Notes: generated by a model not told the origin, from the letters alone. 42,801 bases of DNA from an archaeon (GCA_035289125.1 DATDXW010000039.1:1-42801), one strand, 5' to 3'; numbered from the stretch's first letter, positions 3,124-37,262 are shown. Numbers and translations: made by a program.

Positions 3124-3372
3124 TGTAAACTGCCCGCTAGTGAAGGACGCAAAGGAACTGGACAGCGAAGCTGTCATGCAGCATCGTGCGTCAGTTGCTC
3201 GTGACGCGCGGCAAAAGCGAAGCTGTCATGCAGTCGCGTCATTGCAAGAAGCATTACGAAAATAGTAGGAAAAGACTTTCCGCGCGTGATTCAATTTTTA
3301 GCAGGGCGTGCTCGTTTTCGCCTTTACCTACCGCGGTATCCATGCCGCCCAGTCTGGATTTGATAGTGTAAA
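3124..3372. repeat. Degenerate copy of the MITE-like intergenic repeat family, carrying an inverted copy of the 40-nt gcaacttgacgcac core module
   Basis: The 5' end tgtaaactgcccgc resembles gtaaactacccgcc at 32875 and 34513. 3165-3204 is the reverse complement of 32888-32927 with about 4 differences. agcgaagctgtcatgcag is repeated at 3164 and 3216. A half palindrome aaagactttcc lies at 3276. The 3' end is gtgtaaaag. Confidence 0.5.
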
Positions 3373-5623: not shown

Positions 5624-6763
5624 TCAGCATTGCGGGCGTGCCGTGTAAACGCCCTGCGCGTCGGCGCACTGCGTCGTGACTCGTACAGATGAAAAGTCTG
5701 ACGGGCATGAAAGCACGCCTTTCCCGTCGTCAAATTTCCAGTATCCAACAAGGTCGTTGGTATTCGGAACCGCAAATGCGCCCATGTTCATGCTGTCGTT
5801 TATCTCGTTGCCTCCGAGCGAGCGATTCCACACCTGCACTTCGTCTATCGTGCCGTTGTAATATCCACTGACAGCATCTCTCAGCTTGCCTATATTGAGA
5901 TCGAGTGCCGACACAAGCAGGTCCCCGTTGCTGGGAATCCATGAAGAGGAGTTCTTTACTGTTCCGTCAACGTAAAGCATTGTGGAGTTCCCTGATTTGG
6001 AGCCTGTGCATGCCACATAATACCATATTCCCGGCTGGGCCTCCTTATCAAAACTCTGGATATACGTGCTGGCATCGGCAAATTCGCATCCCCAACCAAA
6101 CAATGCGTCTCCCCCGCCTAGAGATATCGCGTAAGGAGGCACACTGAGAGATGCATCAAATTTCTGTACGACTCTATACCATGTCACAGTTTTATTCGCT
6201 TTCAGCCATGCCGCTACTGTTATCTCTCGGAGTATGTTGAGAGCTGAACTGGTCGGGACCCTCACATAATCATCCACGCCGTCAAACGACATGGCACCCC
6301 CTTTCTTGCCGCTGAGCAGGTAAGCGCATGTCTGATTTCCTGCGCTCATGCCATAGCATATTCCATTGTTGATTCGCAACGAAGAATCCGCCGTGCCGTT
6401 CGTGTTGTACGGCATCTTGAACGTAAGCGTTCCCATTTGCCCAACGTTCAGCGTAAGCGTGTTGTTTGCCGAAAAATTGTTGCCCAGCCTGTCGTAAAGC
6501 TGCCCGCTCGTCACTGCGAGATTGTCCACGTTGCCGCTGTTCTGAACGATAACAGACGCCGTGCCGTTGTTTCCGGCGCCGATGAAAACGTTATTAATTG
6601 TTATCGCCGAAGAAGAGCACGATAGGGCGGAAGCCGTCCTATTGGACACTTCGTTTTGCGACGAAGAGAAAGTAGACGTCGTCCATCCGGAAACGATAGA
6701 AGCGACAGTAACGGTTATCGCTATCAGCAGAATCGAAGCGAGCAACGGAGATATTCCTTTCAT
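5624..6763 (-). CDS. Type IV pilin-like protein with class III signal peptide and an internal LamG (concanavalin-like) domain
   Basis: Likely start is MKG/ISPLLASILLIAITVTVA at 6763; the ORF track start at 6829 is an in-frame leader. LamG_3 signature: MSFDGVDDYVRVP...LYVDG...YNGTIDEVQVWNRSL. The C-terminus keeps the Cys-x(n)-Cys tail shared with the short pilins. Confidence 0.8.
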   Translation of the reverse strand: MKGISPLLASILLIAITVTVASIVSGWTTSTFSSSQNEVSNRTASALSCSSSAITINNVFIGAGNNGTASVIVQNSGNVDNLAVTSGQLYDRLGNNFSANNTLTLNVGQMGTLTFKMPYNTNGTADSSLRINNGICYGMSAGNQTCAYLLSGKKGGAMSFDGVDDYVRVPTSSALNILREITVAAWLKANKTVTWYRVVQKFDASLSVPPYAISLGGGDALFGWGCEFADASTYIQSFDKEAQPGIWYYVACTGSKSGNSTMLYVDGTVKNSSSWIPSNGDLLVSALDLNIGKLRDAVSGYYNGTIDEVQVWNRSLGGNEINDSMNMGAFAVPNTNDLVGYWKFDDGKGVLSCPSDFSSVRVTTQCADAQGVYTARPQC

Positions 6764-6764
6764 A

Positions 6765-6830
6765 TCCCCTTGTTCACTTCGGCAACTTGACGCACTTCGT
6801 GCGTCTGACAGCATCCAAGCCGATGCCATG
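6765..6830. repeat. Left arm of the 66-bp inverted repeat (5' leader of the LamG pilin gene)
   Basis: Reverse complement of 8192-8257, identical at 64 of 66 positions by hand alignment. Contains the SD-like aagggga directly 5' of the ATG at 6763. Confidence 0.9.
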
Positions 6831-6875
6831 TTCTATGTTTCATGCGGATATTTTCACGTCCTCGATTTAAGAGTC

Positions 6876-8114: not shown

Positions 8115-8191
8115 AAAATATTGTCTTCGTTATTATTTATCGCTCTGCCAACGTCATAGAGAAACAGTGATGGCTAGGATGAGCAGGATAA

Positions 8192-8257
8192 CATGGCATC
8201 GGCTTGGATGCTGTCATATGCACGAAGTGCGTCAAGTTGCCGAAGTGAACAAGGGGA
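8192..8257. repeat. Right arm of the 66-bp inverted repeat (orphan leader copy)
   Basis: See 6765-6830. This copy is followed by a stop after 24 codons (MASAWMLSYARSASSCRSEQGEKT*) and not by a pilin ORF. Confidence 0.9.
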
Positions 8258-8268
8258 GAAGACATAAT

Positions 8269-8304
8269 ATGGCATCGACTTGTGAACGAAGTGAACAAGG
8301 GGAT
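8269..8304 (+). repeat. Short deletion derivative of the same leader module
   Basis: atggcatcgacttgtgaacgaagtgaacaaggggat retains both ends of the 66-bp unit but lacks the roughly 40-nt gcaacttgacgcac core. Confidence 0.8.
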
Positions 8305-15750: not shown

Positions 15751-15840
15751 GAGAATATGTGACGCGCTTTTTATTTAAACTTTCTTGCCGCGAACACTTG
15801 TCACGGTAAAGACTAAGACGCGCCAGTCAAACTGCTGAAA

Positions 15841-15968
15841 GAAAAGGACTCATCAGGCATGGTTGTATTTTAGCGGTGCGGTTCGTCTTCGGCTTTATTA
15901 CAAGGAATTCGTAGAATTCCTTGTATGCCCAAAGACTTTCCACGGAAAGTCTTTGTTGTACTTGTTGC
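15841..15968 (+). repeat. Core of a MITE-like intergenic repeat (copy 1) with two long palindromes
   Basis: Aligns with 34558-34684. Palindromes are caaggaattcgtagaattccttg (15901-15923) and caaagactttccacggaaagtctttg (15930-15955). Weaker similarity extends to about 15820-16065. Confidence 0.85.
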
Positions 15969-16071
15969 CGTCCTGTCAAAGAGTGAACCACTAATCCGCA
16001 CCCATCTCAGCTGCCCGCCAAAGATGTGCAGCTTTCGTTATGCAGGAATGTATTTGAAAGAACAAGCGGGA

Positions 16072-23145: not shown

Positions 23146-23222
23146 TAAAAACTTTAATTGCAGCTACCCGCTTCGTACAGTTGCGCGGATTCGTTTTCGG
23201 CTTTACTTGTTTATCGTTTAGC
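23146..23222 (+). repeat. Short copy of the MITE-like family, lacking the two palindromes
   Basis: ctacccgc...cgttttcggctttacttgtttatcgtttag matches the flanks of the 33000 and 34600 copies, with the roughly 63-nt double-palindrome block absent. Confidence 0.5.
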
Positions 23223-23900: not shown

Positions 23901-23988
23901 TGCTCCCGGCGGGATTTGAACCCGCGTCACAAGCTTGAGAAGCTCGTATCCTTTCGACTTATGATGGGCCGGGCTAGACGACAGGAGC
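23901..23988 (-). tRNA. tRNA-Glu (CTC) with about 13 extra nt in the D-loop region
   Basis: Acceptor GCTCCTG/CGGGAGC. Anticodon arm CGAGC-TTCTCAA-GCTTG. T arm GCGGG-TTCAAAT-CCCGC. Discriminator A. 88 nt, versus a typical length of about 75. Confidence 0.8.
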
Positions 23989-25505: not shown

Positions 25506-25624
25506 CGGACCCGACGGGATTCGAACCCGCGACTTCTTTGGACCAAACGTTGGTCCGAAGCTTCGCTTTTTTCGCTTTACATGGCGAAAAATCAAGCGCT
25601 CTATCCAAGCTGAGCTACGGGCCC
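25506..25624 (-). tRNA. tRNA gene with about 44 nt of inserted sequence (two hairpins); anticodon not resolved by eye
   Basis: Minus strand: GGGCCCG-TA-GCTC-AGCTTGGATA-GAGC ... AAGTC-GCGGG-TTCGAAT-CCCGT-CGGGTCC-G. The middle holds TTTTTCGC-CATGTAAA-GCGAAAAA and GGACCAA-CGT-TTGGTCC. The Lys/Arg-like body and G discriminator are suggestive only. Confidence 0.7.
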
Positions 25625-31356: not shown

Positions 31357-31569
31357 TTGTTATCCCAATCATCCCATAGCAGTGTAATAATCAAAAACGG
31401 CAGGTTATTCTACCTTCCCTAAATTCTTCGGGTGTAAAGACGTATCCCATAACCAAATAAGAAAGAGAATCGTTAAAACCACAAAAAAGCCAGCAGGCGG
31501 GAGAAGAGAGCGTACTTGATGTTCGTTTCCTTCTCCCGCTGCCGCTATGGGGTGTGGTACCTATAAGGT

Positions 31570-32604
31570 TCAGTGGAGCATCTCTATGCCCAGTTCGTGG
31601 CCTACTTTCGCGGCGACTTCCTCGCTACGCGTGGGTCCGAGGACGTAAGCGGATTTGACGCCTGTCACCACGGTTATCACCTGTATCTTTCCGCGGTATT
31701 CGGGCAGTATCCTTGCTCCCCAGATGACCTGCGCCTTCGGGTCCAGTTCGCTCTGGATCCGGCCACCTATAAGGTCTATCTCGTCCAGTCGCATATCGTC
31801 CCCGCCTATAACCTGGATAAGCGCGCCGCTTGCGCCTGCGTAGTCCACGTCAAGCAGCGGATGGTTCATCGCCTTCGTGACGGCTTCTTCCGCCCTGTTG
31901 CTGCCTTCAGCCTCGCCGACGCCTATCGTCGCCACGCCGCCCGAGCGCATTATTGCCCGTACGTCCGCGTAGTCTAAGTTTACTAGTGATGGCTCGGATA
32001 TCGTCTCGGTTATGCCCTTTATCATCGTCGCCACCAAGTCGTCAGCTATGCCAAACGCCTGCTTCAGCGGCATATCTCCCGCCAGTTCCAGCAACCGCTG
32101 GTTCTCAATAACGATTACCGTATCGCATATCTCGCGCAGGTACATCAGCCCTTCTTCGGCTTTCCTTATCCTTGCGCCTTCCAGCTTGAACGGCAACGTC
32201 ACAACAGCTATTACTATAGCGCCTGTTTCCCGTGCTATGCGTGCCACGACAGGCAAAGAACCCGTTCCCGTACCGCCTCCGAGGCCGCACGTGACGAATA
32301 CAAGGTCCATTCCCTGCATTATCTCACGTATGTCTGCCTTCGTTTCAAGAGCCGCGTTCCTGCCTACTTCAGGATAGCCACCCGCTCCCAAGCCACGGGT
32401 TAGCTGCCTGCCGATAAGAATCCTCTTGTGCGCTTCCGTGACTCTAAGATGGTTCACGTCCGTGTTTATTGCCACTGTTGTAGCACCGCGAATGGTTTTT
32501 CTCGTGAGCGCAGTGATCGTATTGCAGCCACCGCCGCCCGCTCCTACGACCATTATTCTCGCTTTGTGCGACTCAAAAACCTCCTGTTCTGACATATTGA
32601 ACAC
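31570..32604 (-). CDS. ftsZ: Cell division GTPase FtsZ
   Basis: 344 aa. Tubulin signature GLGGGTGTGSLPVVA and N-terminal VVGAGGGGCNTI. Confidence 0.95.
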   Translation of the reverse strand: MFNMSEQEVFESHKARIMVVGAGGGGCNTITALTRKTIRGATTVAINTDVNHLRVTEAHKRILIGRQLTRGLGAGGYPEVGRNAALETKADIREIMQGMDLVFVTCGLGGGTGTGSLPVVARIARETGAIVIAVVTLPFKLEGARIRKAEEGLMYLREICDTVIVIENQRLLELAGDMPLKQAFGIADDLVATMIKGITETISEPSLVNLDYADVRAIMRSGGVATIGVGEAEGSNRAEEAVTKAMNHPLLDVDYAGASGALIQVIGGDDMRLDEIDLIGGRIQSELDPKAQVIWGARILPEYRGKIQVITVVTGVKSAYVLGPTRSEEVAAKVGHELGIEMLH

Positions 32605-32682
32605 CCCTCTTTCGGAATTTATATTTTGGAATATGGAATAGCTTTTATAGTGAGTATGCCTATATTCCCCCTAGAAACAGCT

Positions 32683-32756
32683 TGTCCGGTTGTTTCGTGT
32701 CCAATGTCCAAGCGATTGTCCAAATCGCAGCTAATCTTCATTTTTGCGCGTTGTCC
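32683..32756 (+). promoter_or_regulatory. Five same-orientation TGTCC(A/G) repeats upstream of ftsZ
   Basis: tgtcc at 32683, 32698, 32705, 32717 and 32752, about 80-150 bp upstream of the ftsZ ATG and beyond a ctataaaag TATA-like box. Confidence 0.3.
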
Positions 32757-32873
32757 AGACGCGTAAAATACAATTCTATTAGCATATCCTGTTTTAAACC
32801 ATTTCTATTTTTGAAAATATATGTTACATTTCATGCACGCTGTGCTTTGCACAAAAACTTCGCCCAAAACACA

Positions 32874-33179
32874 TGTAAACTACCCGCCACGAGCAACTTG
32901 ACGCACGATGCTGTATGACGGCTTCGCTTTCCGATGGCGCGTCTTCGTGAGAGGCGTAGTAAGGGGCGAACGTTCTGTGCATGCGACGATGACGGAGCGG
33001 GTTACTTTTCGACTTTTATTACGGGGAATTCGGAGAATTCCTCGCATACCCAAAAGACTTTCCACGGAAAGTCTTTGTTGTGCTTGTTTACCGTTTAGTT
33101 ATGCTAACCCGCCATTATCTAACGCCTGGGACGCACCAGCAACGCCGCTTCGGTGGCTTTCGGCGCGCGGGTTGTAAAA
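32874..33179 (+). repeat. MITE-like intergenic repeat (copy 2, about 305 bp) with terminal gtaaactacccgccac ... gcgggttgtaaa, the 40-nt core module and two palindromes
   Basis: Shares a 16-nt identical 5' end and a similar 3' end with 34513-34768. Palindromes at 33022-33044 and 33051-33077. Confidence 0.85.
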
Positions 33180-33568
33180 GAATTCATTATGGAAAGGTTT
33201 CTAAATGGAAAATGGTAAGAAATGCGAAATTTTGATAAGGTGATTTTATGAAAACCGAAGCAGAAAGTGTTCAAGTATTTGAAGTGCGGATGTGGAGCAA
33301 TAAATATTATGGAAAGCGAATAACACGCAAAGACCCTGTCAACATATACAATGGGATGATGTAATGGACGGTAAAACAAAAGAAAATTTTCACTTTCATT
33401 GCCGGCAAAATTGGTGGAAATAATAGAAAAGCTGCATGTAAAAACCAAAAAAAGTAATTATGACTTTTAAACACGTTTCCGACTTATCAAACAGAGGTCC
33501 CTTATTAAACAAAGCCAGCCTGCGCCAAATCTTTTTATACTGAATTCTACATAAATAAAGAAGGTGAA

Positions 33569-33991
33569 ATGGTGGCAAAAGGTATAACCTCAGTGATTGC
33601 GGTAATACTGCTACTCCTCATAACTATAGCAGTAATCGGATTCGCTACGGGATTCTTCCAGACCATCGTCCAAACGTCCGGAACACAGGCCACGGACGCC
33701 GCACAGCAGACTGGCGACAGGTTGCAGAAAACCGTAGAGTTTGTCGCGGCATCCGCTGATACCGTGACTGTCAAGAACGCAGGAACGACTACGATGACTA
33801 CTGCAACCGATTTGACCGTGCTCATAGCTGGCGTGCCCAAAACATGCACATGGTCTGCGGCTTCTGTCGCAGCCGGTACGACGACAACCTGCACCATAAC
33901 AGCAACAGCCGGCAACGACTGCACGCCATCAGCGGCCGCGATAACCGTGGTAGCGCCCGGAAATGACGACACGTCTGGAAAATGCCCGTAA
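33569..33991 (+). CDS. Type IV pilin-like protein (candidate major pilin, class 2 N-terminus)
   Basis: MVAKG/ITSVIAVILLLLITIAVIGFATGFFQT. Thr/Ala-rich 140 aa. cataaataaa and aaggtga lie upstream. The N-terminal 45 aa are nearly identical to the giant protein at 14843. Confidence 0.85.
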   Translation: MVAKGITSVIAVILLLLITIAVIGFATGFFQTIVQTSGTQATDAAQQTGDRLQKTVEFVAASADTVTVKNAGTTTMTTATDLTVLIAGVPKTCTWSAASVAAGTTTTCTITATAGNDCTPSAAAITVVAPGNDDTSGKCP

Positions 33992-34126
33992 ATTAGCTTC
34001 TTTCTTTTTTTTTAACTATTTTGATTTAATGTGTAAAAATCCACTGCGTTCAGGCATTGGATTTGCATACCGAATTCCCCAGAATCGATATTTAAAGTTA
34101 AGACTATTAAATTATGAGGTCTATGT

Positions 34127-34516
34127 ATGGAAAAGAAACCCAGTACAATCAAAAACCAGAAGCCCGGAAGCTTCGTTCTCATTGATGATGTCCCTTACAA
34201 TGTGGAAAAGATAGAAATATCCAGACCCGGAAAGCACGGCGCATCAAAGGCAAAGCTCACGGCGTCCGGCGTCTTTGACGACCAGAAAAAAATCATCGTC
34301 CAACCGGCAGACGCGCGCATAGACGTCCCGATGATAGAGAAGAGGACGTGCCAGATACTCAGCTTTGCCGGCGACAACGCGCAGATAATGGACGTGGAAG
34401 ATTTCTCCCAGGCTGATGTCAAAGTTCCCATTGATCTCAAGGGCGCGATCAAGGAAGGCGACGAAGTGCTCGTATGGCGCTTCGGCAGTTACCTGATGAT
34501 AAAGGGCAGGAAGTAA
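34127..34516 (+). CDS. eif5a: Translation initiation factor 5A (aIF5A)
   Basis: 129 aa. The hypusine loop SRPGKHGASKAK is in the expected position. Confidence 0.95.
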   Translation: MEKKPSTIKNQKPGSFVLIDDVPYNVEKIEISRPGKHGASKAKLTASGVFDDQKKIIVQPADARIDVPMIEKRTCQILSFAGDNAQIMDVEDFSQADVKVPIDLKGAIKEGDEVLVWRFGSYLMIKGRK

Positions 34517-34768
34517 ACTACCCGCCACTAAAGCGGCGGGCGTTATGAAAAGGAGGGAAAAGGACTCCTGCGCACGGTTCGGTTTTTGGCGGAGCTTGGT
34601 TTCGGCTTTATGACGAGGAATTCGTAGAATTCCTCGTATACCCAAAGACTTTCCATGGAAAGTCTTTGTTGTACTTGTTTACCGTAGCACAGCGGGGACT
34701 GGTATATTAACCCGCCCTTGCCTCATCCACCCGCTCAAGCGGATGGCTTTCGGTGTGCGGGTTGTAAA
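34513..34768 (+). repeat. MITE-like intergenic repeat (copy 3, about 256 bp)
   Basis: Same termini as copy 2. Palindromes at 34614-34636 and 34643-34668. Its first bases include the aIF5A stop codon TAA (34514-34516). Confidence 0.85.
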
Positions 34769-34812
34769 TATCTTGTGCCAATTCAAGCAAAGCTTTCCCG
34801 AATTTCTCAAAG

Positions 34813-34893
34813 CATAATATGGCATCGCCTCGCGAAGCGAGGAATAGTCAGATATAATATGGGATACGACGCATTCGCAGAATGCGGGGTATG
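34813..34893 (+). repeat. Orphan copy of the leader-like module (ATAATATGGCATCG ... GGGGTATGG)
   Basis: Aligns with the aspS leader (reverse complement of 37167-37262), including the second box ataatatgggatacg and the downstream ATG. Here the ATG is followed by only one sense codon and then a stop. Confidence 0.7.
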
Positions 34894-35070
34894 GATACAG
34901 ATTCACGAATGAAATGAGTGAAGGGTATTGGGAATATGTAAGCAGCGCGTAATCATATAATTATAGCATCGACTTTTTGACGCAGCAAAAAGGGGATATG
35001 GAATCGCTTTATTTCCCTTGTAAAAACGTATATATATCCCACAGCTACAAATAACAGCAAAGGTTTCGAT

Positions 35071-37166: not shown

Positions 37167-37262
37167 ACGAATCCACCATACCCCTCGCTCACTTCGTTCG
37201 CAAGTGCGTATCCCATATTATCATTTGCTCCTTGCTCCACAAGTCGATGCCATATTATTATA
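37167..37262 (-). repeat. Leader-like repeat module forming the 5' leader of aspS
   Basis: Minus strand reads ataataatatggcatcgacttgtgg...ataatatgggatacg...gaacgaagtgagcgaggggtatggtggattcgtATG. Related copies at 6765-6845, 8185-8257, 8263-8304 and 34813-34893. Confidence 0.75.

Follow-up and report, generated by a model that had tools for sequence, protein, structure and literature searches.

Intergenic hairpin repeats of an Aenigmatarchaeota genome as probable PATE-type derivatives of an IS200-type transposon, with a 61-bp element nested in one subfamily

The DNA analysed here (hereafter the window) is a stretch of 42,801 nucleotides that forms contig C39 of an Aenigmatarchaeota (DPANN) genome assembly of 770 kb, 72 contigs and 89.5% completeness (hereafter G000). 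It contains several intergenic copies of a hairpin-rich repeat, and the question raised by this locus is what kind of element these copies represent. A preliminary description of the window regarded the repeat as MITE-like and offered, among other readings, a non-autonomous mobile element and a structured small RNA family.

Table 1. Positions of the repeat copies, their ends and their nested cores in the window
Feature	Position	Strand	Details
Copy A, complete PATE-type element, 303 bp from the putative TAAA target word	32876..33178	+	TGTAAA at 32874-32879
Ends of copy A	left start 32880 (CTACCCGCCAC...); right stop 33178 (...GCGGGTTGTAAA)	+	
Copy B, complete PATE-type element, 255 bp	34514..34768	+	GTAAA 34513-34517; left end from 34518
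Left-end hairpin of copy B, CCCGCCAC-TAAA-GCGGCGGG	34521-34540	+	
Right end of copy B	34727..34768	+	hairpin CCACCCGC-TCAA-GCGGATGG 34727-34746, then tail CTTTCGGTGTGCGGGTTGTAAA
Copy C, 5' end missing, core present, right-end tail decayed (..CAGCTTTCGTTATGCAGGAATGTAT)	15837..16046	+	
Copy D, left end (TAAACTGCCCGC), inserted hairpin modules and middle; no core, no right end	3126..3337	+	
Degenerate coreless fragment (..GCTACCCGC..GGATTCGTTTTCGGCTTTACTTGTTTATCGTTTAG)	23146..23222	+	under nhmmer threshold
Core nested in copy A, TA-flanked double palindrome	33019..33082	+	hairpin 1 33022-33044, hairpin 2 33052-33077
Core nested in copy B, TA-flanked double palindrome	34611..34673	+	hairpin 1 34614-34636, hairpin 2 34643-34668
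Core hairpins of copy C	hairpin 1 15901-15923, hairpin 2 15930-15955	+	

Four clear copies (A to D) and one fragment are present in the window (Table 1). The two copies with matching 5' and 3' ends that had been reported at 32874-33179 and 34513-34768 are confirmed: copy A ends at 33178, where it reads ...GTTGTAAA, copy B ends at 34768, and the words common to both are (T)GTAAACTACCCGCCAC on the 5' side and GGCTTTCGGYGYGCGGGTTGTAAA on the 3' side. Two more diverged copies, placed earlier at about 15820-16065 and about 3124-3372, are recovered as copies C (without a 5' end) and D (without a 3' end), and the short version without a central block at 23146-23222 is indeed a family member, in the form of a degenerate fragment. 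The left-end hairpin of copy A is broken by a small hairpin module at ~32885-32932, which is the inverse of the module at 3160-3206 in copy D; an inverted-repeat search pairs 3160-3193 with 32899-32932. Copy B begins on the TAA stop codon (34514-34516) of an eIF5A gene that spans 34127-34516 (PF21485, IF5A).

A profile search (nhmmer) of the whole G000 assembly yields ~69 family loci, which together make up 13.5 kb or 1.75% of its DNA and are dispersed over most contigs. Central blocks number 21-22 by BLAST and motif extraction and 20 by an exact pattern of hairpin 2, for which a reversed control pattern gave 0 matches, while pattern searches recover ~45 ends of the left type and 30 or more of the right type; two looser pattern scans were mostly noise, and only recognisable family members were taken from them. 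These counts indicate that the repeat is real and far beyond chance. The best copy pairs within G000 share 92-93% identity; for example, copy C26:12206-12412 is 92-93% identical to copy A and lacks positions 132-229 of the latter. The genome-wide comparison that the preliminary description had proposed in order to define copies and ends shows sharp boundaries at 54 left and 67 right ends in G000 and the closest other species of the genus (hereafter G003).

The end logos of these two genomes show where the element begins and stops: conservation starts with GTAAAC at the 54 left ends, with random sequence further upstream, and sequence is again random directly past GTAAA at the 67 right ends. 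The ends are fixed, i.e. (G)TAAA followed by CTACCCGCCAC on the left and GGCTTTCGGTGTGCGGGTTGTAAA on the right, and the GTAAA before the left end is found in 41-52 of the 54 cases, depending on the position. Near each end lies a GC-rich hairpin. Complete copies begin with CTACCCGCC..., their left hairpin (CCCGCCAC-TAAA-GTGGCGGG) starting 3 nt inside the element, and close with the right hairpin (CCACCCGC-TAAA-GCGGGTGG) and a 22-nt tail that finishes in TTGTAAA. An alignment of complete copies reveals a common plan, of which the 5' part consists of TAAAC-TA, the left hairpin, CGTTATGAAAG and a small variable hairpin, and the 3' part of GCGCATGGTTCGGCTTTTGGCGGAGCGGGTTCGTCTTCGGTTTTA and CTTGTTTAC (between which the TA site of the core is located), ...AACCCGCC-CTTGTCTCAT, the right hairpin and CTTTCGGTGTGCGGGTTGTAAA. 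Left and right ends pair on one strand at distances of 70-383 bp with no coding ORF between them. Variation is superimposed on this plan: (i) extra hairpin modules of 40-90 nt occur inside the loops of both end hairpins, in either orientation; (ii) in ends-only copies of 70-120 bp the two end hairpins are fused; (iii) truncated and mosaic copies are common; and (iv) neighbouring tandem copies have one TAAA in common (C40, C15 and G3C19).

This anatomy does not fit the MITE-like class suggested at first. The two termini of the element, CTACCC... and ...TTGTAAA, do not form an inverse-complementary pair, i.e. terminal inverted repeats are lacking. The words ACCCGC and GCGGGT, previously taken for a weak terminal inverted repeat, have other partners: ACCCGC forms the 5' arm of the hairpin near the left end, and GCGGGT pairs with AACCCGC ~60 nt upstream. 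A classical MITE was thus rejected for the 250-300-bp element, whose ends are not inverted repeats and share only a direct GTAAA. Subterminal hairpins, together with the lack of terminal inverted repeats and the apparent lack of an ordinary target duplication, place it with the PATE type.

The same boundaries bear on the idea that the copies are decayed segmental duplications or integron-like attC sites. Mosaic interiors and copies without one end could be read in this way, but the ends found in G000 and G003 (~54 left, ~67 right) are sharply bounded within random flanks and do not have the form of R''/R' inverted core sites, and the copies are scattered across most contigs, including between core genes such as the eIF5A gene. 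Moreover, the genomes of the genus with a match contain one or two tyrosine-recombinase hits each (none in G001), and none of these lies in a cassette array. We regard this explanation as extremely improbable.

We then looked for a transposase that could be linked to these ends. The lack of a transposase gene in the window, already stated in the preliminary description, extends to the assembly: no genes for Y1 transposases, TnpB (PF01385, PF07282) or DEDD transposases (PF01548) were detected in G000, which is 89.5% complete. Multi-copy IS elements are often missing from genome bins. The proposed search for a transposase gene with the same termini, unsuccessful in G000, succeeded in a related genome and in a metagenome contig. 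Among the four other genomes of the genus, Y1 transposase genes are present in G001 and G002. In G001 (contig C25, L128), TGTAAA is directly followed by TAATCCCGCCACTGAAGTGGCGGGCGTTACGG, then by a 156-aa ORF on the opposite strand and then by ...CATCCACCCGCTGAAGCGGGTGGGTTTCGATATGCGGGTTCTAAA / ...AACCCGCTATTGCCTCATCCACCCGCTGAAGCGGGTGGGTTTCGATATGCGGGTTCTAAA. The encoded protein matches PF01797 with 93 bits and the NCBIfam equivalog model NF033573 ('IS200/IS605 family transposase') with 103 bits (cut-off 55). Metagenome contig L146 contains the same ~670-bp transposon entire with both flanks (...GTGTAAA, element, CTGGGCG...). Copy B agrees with the G001 element at 52/60 positions over its last 60 nt, i.e. 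the right end (87%, E = 1e-17), and at 23/25 positions at the left end, in the same order and orientation.

Intermediate forms connect this transposon with the gene-less copies. Elements of 190 bp in G001 and G002 correspond to the transposon minus its gene; what they retain is the 3'-terminal remainder of tnpA and the non-coding DNA on its upstream side, and they align over their length with the coreless element of G000. In complete copies, what lies between the ends is this non-coding stretch, and tnpA is gone. Contig C78 of G003 stops inside tnpA: an exact left end of the element is joined there to the final 27 codons of the gene (74% identical to those of G001), and these codons are all that is seen of tnpA in G003. 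Related TnpA proteins (51-66% identity) occur in IS200-type elements of other DPANN genome bins, and these elements have a common end plan, i.e. GT(A/G)AAC-TA-hairpin on the left and hairpin-GGTTTCTTGCG...CTAAA on the right, with hairpin sequences that differ yet still pair. Because of the transposon ends, the deletion intermediates and the G003 left end joined to tnpA, we consider it likely, with a probability of about 0.87, that the elements derive from an IS200-type insertion sequence (IS200/IS605, tnpA only), are non-autonomous and belong to the PATE class. TnpB was not found in G000, G001, G003 or G004. Readings that involve omega-RNA or bridge-RNA were dropped, since TnpB and the IS110-type DEDD transposase are absent from G000.

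A Y1 HUH enzyme is also linked to the bacterial REP/BIME repeats with RAYT proteins (PMC2817692, PMC8266576), which are likewise abundant, short, hairpin-bearing and intergenic and form mosaic arrangements. It is nevertheless extremely doubtful that the family is such a system with a domesticated single-copy RAYT: the linked enzyme, which passes the IS200/IS605 model, fails the RAYT model NF047646 (23.4 bits, below the cut-off of 80), its gene is enclosed by the element, whose left and right ends differ from each other, and has no inverted REPs on its sides, and the units are much longer (190-300 bp versus ~35 bp).

Evidence for mobility comes from a comparison of all 96 contigs of G003 with G000, which share ~83% nucleotide identity in aligned DNA. 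Among 45 collinear orthologous gaps, 8 are filled in both genomes, 18 in G000 only and 19 in G003 only. At least ten of the gaps are clean size differences (e.g. 258 vs 11, 282 vs 29, 4 vs 286 and 11 vs 339 bp), and the gap orthologous to that of copy D also holds a family member in G003. Some copy pairs inside G000 are closer to each other (up to 93%) than the two genomes are. Of the five genomes of the genus, G000 counted, four contain the family, which was not found in G004; nor was it found in the other sampled genera, barring single left-end-like hairpins. Of the readings offered initially, the non-autonomous mobile element is therefore the one that stands, on account of the Y1 gene with the same ends in a sister species, the deletion intermediates and the difference at most orthologous sites.

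From the end logos, the tandem copies and one orthologous empty site that bears GTAAA (...AAAGTAAA/AAAC..., C32 vs G3C19; n = 1), we infer that insertion would occur 3' of TAAA without target duplication, the flanks of filled and empty pairs not being alignable base for base at 83% identity. The GTAAA before left ends, the TAAA at right ends, the TAAA shared by tandem copies and this empty site all fit the insertion rule of IS200/IS605 elements. Nine public contigs, found through the exact eIF5A protein and 99.1-100% identical to the window, contain no strain-level empty site, and copies A and B are present wherever these contigs cover them; an apparent 100-bp difference in one of them (L019) is a run of N. 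G002 has no element after eIF5A, with flanks too diverged for a base-exact empty site.

The target word also bears on how copies are placed relative to genes. A TAA stop codon marks the start of six copies, among them copy B behind the eIF5A gene, as would be expected from this word. Based on hexamer-scored gene calls, which are crude, elements point in the same direction as the upstream gene in 41:22 cases (p = 0.02), a modest bias that is due in part to the enrichment of the family in convergent gaps (29% vs 16% background); the target word would also explain this moderate co-orientation. Left ends often lie at most 50 nt past a gene of the same direction, and several right ends lie 15-35 nt ahead of a start codon of the same direction. 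Every gap type and both orientations are occupied, and between tandem gene pairs 21 copies are sense and 15 antisense.

A module kept for a function that serves the host could draw on some of these features, namely a terminator combined with a TATA-like promoter (GGGTTATAAA or GGGTTGTAAA), or a site for a dimeric protein on the 26-bp palindrome described below. The right end finishes in TTGTAAA or TTATAAA shortly ahead of several start codons, T-runs occur within the element, and convergent gaps are enriched. We consider it very unlikely: the copies use all gap types and both orientations, their sites are mostly species-specific, many are truncated or mosaic, and the TAAA-rich end is accounted for by the putative cleavage and target word of the transposon. 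Such a function may be a side effect for some copies, but it explains neither the origin nor the spread of the family. That the host has taken over the composite element as a portable intergenic module is likewise very unlikely. Were it true, (i) elements landing after TAA stops could end transcription of the upstream gene with their T-runs and long palindromes; (ii) a TATA-like TTGTAAA or TTATAAA would be left 15-35 nt ahead of the next gene; (iii) the perfect 26-bp palindrome would be a common binding site of one dimeric protein; and (iv) waves of a transposase-less PATE could rewire gene boundaries in a sub-megabase DPANN genome with few regulators.

With the elements taken as IS200-derived PATEs, the central block needs separate consideration. 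Two hairpins had been described in it, and both are present in copies A, B and the 15.9-kb copy. The block consists of two adjacent palindromes over 61 bp, with short terminal inverted repeats (CAACAARGA...; CAACAAGGAG.. and ..CTTTGTTG) and TA on both sides; hairpin 2 of copy B is a perfect 26-bp palindrome. Coreless PATEs read ..CGGTTTTA-CTTGTTTAC.., whereas core-bearing ones read ..CGGCTTTA-[TGAC...GTTG]-TA-CTTGTTTAC... Every core in G000 sits at one and the same TA within the PATE, which suggests a single acquisition followed by spread with the carrier. G003 is the sole other species with the central block, and some of its cores are arranged head to tail with one TA in common.

G000 contains 20 instances of the second palindrome (CAAAGACTTT..AAAGTCTTTG) and G003 13 or more; five genomes that belong to four other genera have a single one each, where it is accompanied by a different first palindrome and lies in unrelated neighbourhoods (FEN1/EF-1beta, PFOR and VapBC). 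Genome G008 shows both states of a site only 118 bp apart, filled as CGCAGCA-TA-[CAAC...61 bp...GTTG]-TA-AGCCAAGCG and empty as CGCAGCA-TA-AGCCAAGCG (L005, position 1608 for the empty site vs 1490-1570 for the filled one). A single TA is thus found at two independent empty sites, i.e. in G008 and in the coreless PATEs. These filled and empty sites suggest that the core is a tiny element in its own right, bounded by terminal inverted repeats and a duplicated TA. As judged from sequence, the two long palindromes are a second element nested in one PATE subfamily and not the core of the family, and it is this 61-bp insert that shows the terminal inverted repeats and target-site duplication characteristic of a MITE. 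In the lineage of G000 and its closest relative, one PATE subfamily would have gained this unrelated element, which then would have multiplied as a passenger.

The core resembles TA-targeting miniature elements of the IS630/Tc1-mariner type in being very short, in its terminal inverted repeats of ~10-12 bp and in having TA on either side of the insert and a single TA when the site is empty. It differs from them in its two adjacent palindromes and in that, within G000, it spreads solely as a PATE passenger. A search for a partner transposase that covered DDE_3 (IS630-type) detected such genes in 7 of the 44 genomes of the taxonomic family, and none of the four loci read carries the core repeat.

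The palindromes of the core also allow DNA-level and RNA-level readings to be compared. Loops of hairpin 1 occur in both orientations (GTA/TAC, GGA/TCC and TCAAAG/CTTTGA), as do those of hairpin 2 (TATG/CATA); such reverse-complement pairs suggest repeated inversion of each palindrome while the surrounding sequence stayed collinear. Across 47 central blocks, the stems contain 2 compensatory double changes versus ~11 one-sided mismatches, and the mismatches are balanced between G.T (~6) and A.C (~5-6). The compensatory A:T versus G:C change that had been noted in hairpin 1 of the 15.9-kb copy (15901-15923) is real and is one of the 2 doubles; as a general property of the stems, compensation does not hold up, such doubles being rare. 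For copy B, folding exceeds the stability of shuffled sequence on both strands (z = -3.4 and -5.4), the minus strand folding better. Neither a search of the window against Rfam at the gathering threshold nor a permissive scan of 32800-34850 (to E = 5) matched anything other than SRP RNA and tRNAs, and the permissive scan gave no match to an omega-RNA-like family. Because of the flipped loops, the balanced mismatches, the rarity of doubles, the folding of both strands and the lack of an Rfam match, these data indicate that the palindromes behave as DNA palindromes and not as strand-specific RNA.

Structured small RNAs or 3'-UTR RNA elements, with hairpins under selection at the RNA level, would account for the folding in excess of shuffled sequence, for the few compensatory stem changes and for the many left ends shortly after co-directional genes. 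This reading, given as one option in the preliminary description, is nonetheless highly improbable and was abandoned, given the evidence just listed, the presence of both sense and antisense copies between tandem genes, ends that belong to a transposase-bearing IS, and more than 80% of positions being unshared with the closest species.

For the IS200-derived PATEs, the following mechanism can be proposed by analogy with IS200/IS605 elements. A Y1 HUH transposase acting in trans would recognise both end hairpins on one DNA strand; a single-stranded circle would be excised and inserted 3' of the short word (G)TAAA, and the target would not be duplicated. This would explain the GTAAA before left ends, the shared TAAA in tandem copies and the co-directional starts on TAA stops. 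Hairpin modules would have been inserted into the loops of the end hairpins, and fusion of the latter would have produced the ends-only copies. There is no sign of present activity in G000, as no Y1 gene was found in its assembly. For the same reason, mobilisation by an outside transposase (e.g. of a co-resident strain, a host or a virus) is a possibility, though an unlikely one. Viral contigs gave no match to the left end or the core.

The closest known counterparts are found among haloarchaea. PATEs of Haloquadratum walsbyi and Natronomonas derive from IS605-type transposons (Dyall-Smith et al. 2011, PMC3119063), and in Haloquadratum they are reported to occur also in terminal-only form, to have mosaic interiors and to bear smaller mobile repeats within their palindromes (PMC3119063). 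The elements studied here are similar in many respects, i.e. they (i) have no coding capacity and no terminal inverted repeats; (ii) possess near-end palindromes and a short conserved terminal oligonucleotide; (iii) were born by deletion of a transposon core; (iv) include terminal-only minis and heterogeneous mosaic interiors; (v) harbour smaller nested mobile repeats, also within the near-terminal palindromes; and (vi) far outnumber intact transposase genes. They differ in that the host is not a haloarchaeon but a member of the DPANN (Aenigmatarchaeota) with less than 1 Mb of DNA, the parent is tnpA only (IS200 type) and not of the tnpB (IS1341) type, the sequences are unrelated, and the TA-flanked double palindrome is a fixed passenger of one subfamily.

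Similar comparisons apply to other systems. IS608 and ISDra2 transpose as single strands by 'peel and paste' (PMC3597680), and the family agrees with such IS200/IS605 elements in having an autonomous relative with a Y1 HUH transposase, in the subterminal hairpins on either side, in the lack of terminal inverted repeats and in the short invariant word that precedes the left end and closes the 3' terminus; unlike them, the window copies carry no transposase gene and have a single putative cleavage and target word, (G)TAAA, at both ends. Geobacillus stearothermophilus contains dozens of gene-less, PATE-like IS605 elements, often with guide (omega) RNAs for TnpB (Meers et al. 2023, PMC10055086). 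As in that species, the ends here are common with a tnpA-bearing element and mobilisation is predicted to occur in trans; in contrast, the genomes listed above lack a detected TnpB and an omega-RNA-like match was not obtained.

The repeat is thus a known sort of selfish DNA in a new lineage, one with a very small archaeal genome. One transposon-derived family, and not an unknown RNA or regulatory system, explains ~1.75% of the genome and many of the assembly breaks in G000 and its sister species. It makes visible, in DPANN, a series that begins with the full transposon, continues with deletion derivatives and finishes with ends-only forms, together with a second element that hitch-hikes inside the first. 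To our knowledge, such layering of an element within an element has so far been documented mainly in haloarchaea. MITE finders that depend on terminal inverted repeats will miss the family. The species-specific insertion sites could be used as typing markers of strains or species for these uncultivated archaea. In annotation, the elements create spurious ORFs (e.g. 32908-33177 on the plus strand and 34244-34645 on the minus strand), and several genes draw their TAA stop from the word that adjoins an element.

A second repeat family, unrelated to PATE (the gene-less IS200/IS605-derived repeat), is also present in the window and consists of ATAATATGGSATRCGA, a variable hairpin and GGGGTAT. Its copies frequently stand in tandem directly before start codons. 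The presence or absence of these copies varies between the window's own genome and that of the closest species (G003). A further small hairpin module, the third repeat type (GATGCTGTATGAC...GTCATACAGCATC, GACGCAC-nnnn-GTGCGTC and CAAGTTGCTC), gave ∼45 BLAST matches genome-wide in both orientations. It occupies loops in the end hairpins of PATEs as well as hairpins of the second family. It resembles the SMR-A repeats of Haloquadratum, which target PATE palindromes.

Coordinates of additional features (window positions unless a genome or contig is named)
Feature	Location	Strand	Details
Second repeat family (GGGGTAT type)	34809-34999; 37174-37259; 6752-6835; 8188-8298		
Second-family copies facing short G003 gaps (examples), own genome	C9:11584-11699; C48:6182-6460; C67:5869-6016		
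Third hairpin module	32885-32932; 3160-3206		
Second, distinct IS200-type tnpA (locus L130)	G001:C67:15449-18281		138 aa
TnpB-type gene (locus L141)	G002:C28:20008-23202		open frame 399 aa; PF07282, 86 bits
Nested-palindrome stretch (locus L007)	G015:C3, 880-1200; 2230-2320		
tRNA match	25506-25624	(-)	Rfam, 119 nt, 43 bits
Partial tRNA match	23909-23959		Rfam; within ARAGORN tRNA-Leu 23901-23988
ORFs overlapping repeats or antisense to eIF5A	32908-33177; 33119-33448; 34244-34645	(+); (-); (-)	89-133 codons

Other transposase genes occur elsewhere in the genus. The tnpA of L130 adjoins an ORF for a 291-aa IS240-like DDE transposase (PF13610), and an inverted PATE right end lies ∼840 bp downstream, preceded by a small gene pair, one member of which is possibly a PIN-type toxin. 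The TnpB-type gene of L141 is the sole one detected among the five genomes of the genus, and no PATE ends were found across its 3.2-kb locus.

In a genome of another genus, the region between two PFOR subunit genes (L007) is dense in long nested palindromes and small membrane ORFs, and also encodes a 145-aa HTH protein (HTH_23, HTH_28 and HTH_Tnp_1). This stretch looks like an inserted mobile patch because all of these features adjoin a single copy of the double-palindrome element, the 61-bp core nested in one PATE subfamily.

Two anomalies concern assembly and binning. The public contig ERZ4903055 k141_1943564 (L020) is 99.9% identical to the window over 31373-34770 and unrelated to it left of 31372. 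This break falls in the gap separating the gene for inositol-1-phosphate synthase from that for FtsZ, and reflects either rearrangement at this point or chimeric assembly of the contig. Internal comparison of the window's own bin also reveals several kilobase-long collinear stretches with only 65-73% identity (C26 vs C31 and C62; C44 vs C61), which are either old large duplications or co-binned contigs of a second, related organism. The stated contamination of this assembly is 2.96%.

As for annotation of the window, ARAGORN reported no tRNA at the 119-nt Rfam match, which is probably an intron-containing tRNA. Hexamer scoring rejected the three tabulated ORFs; mistaken annotation of these ORFs as genes is likely.
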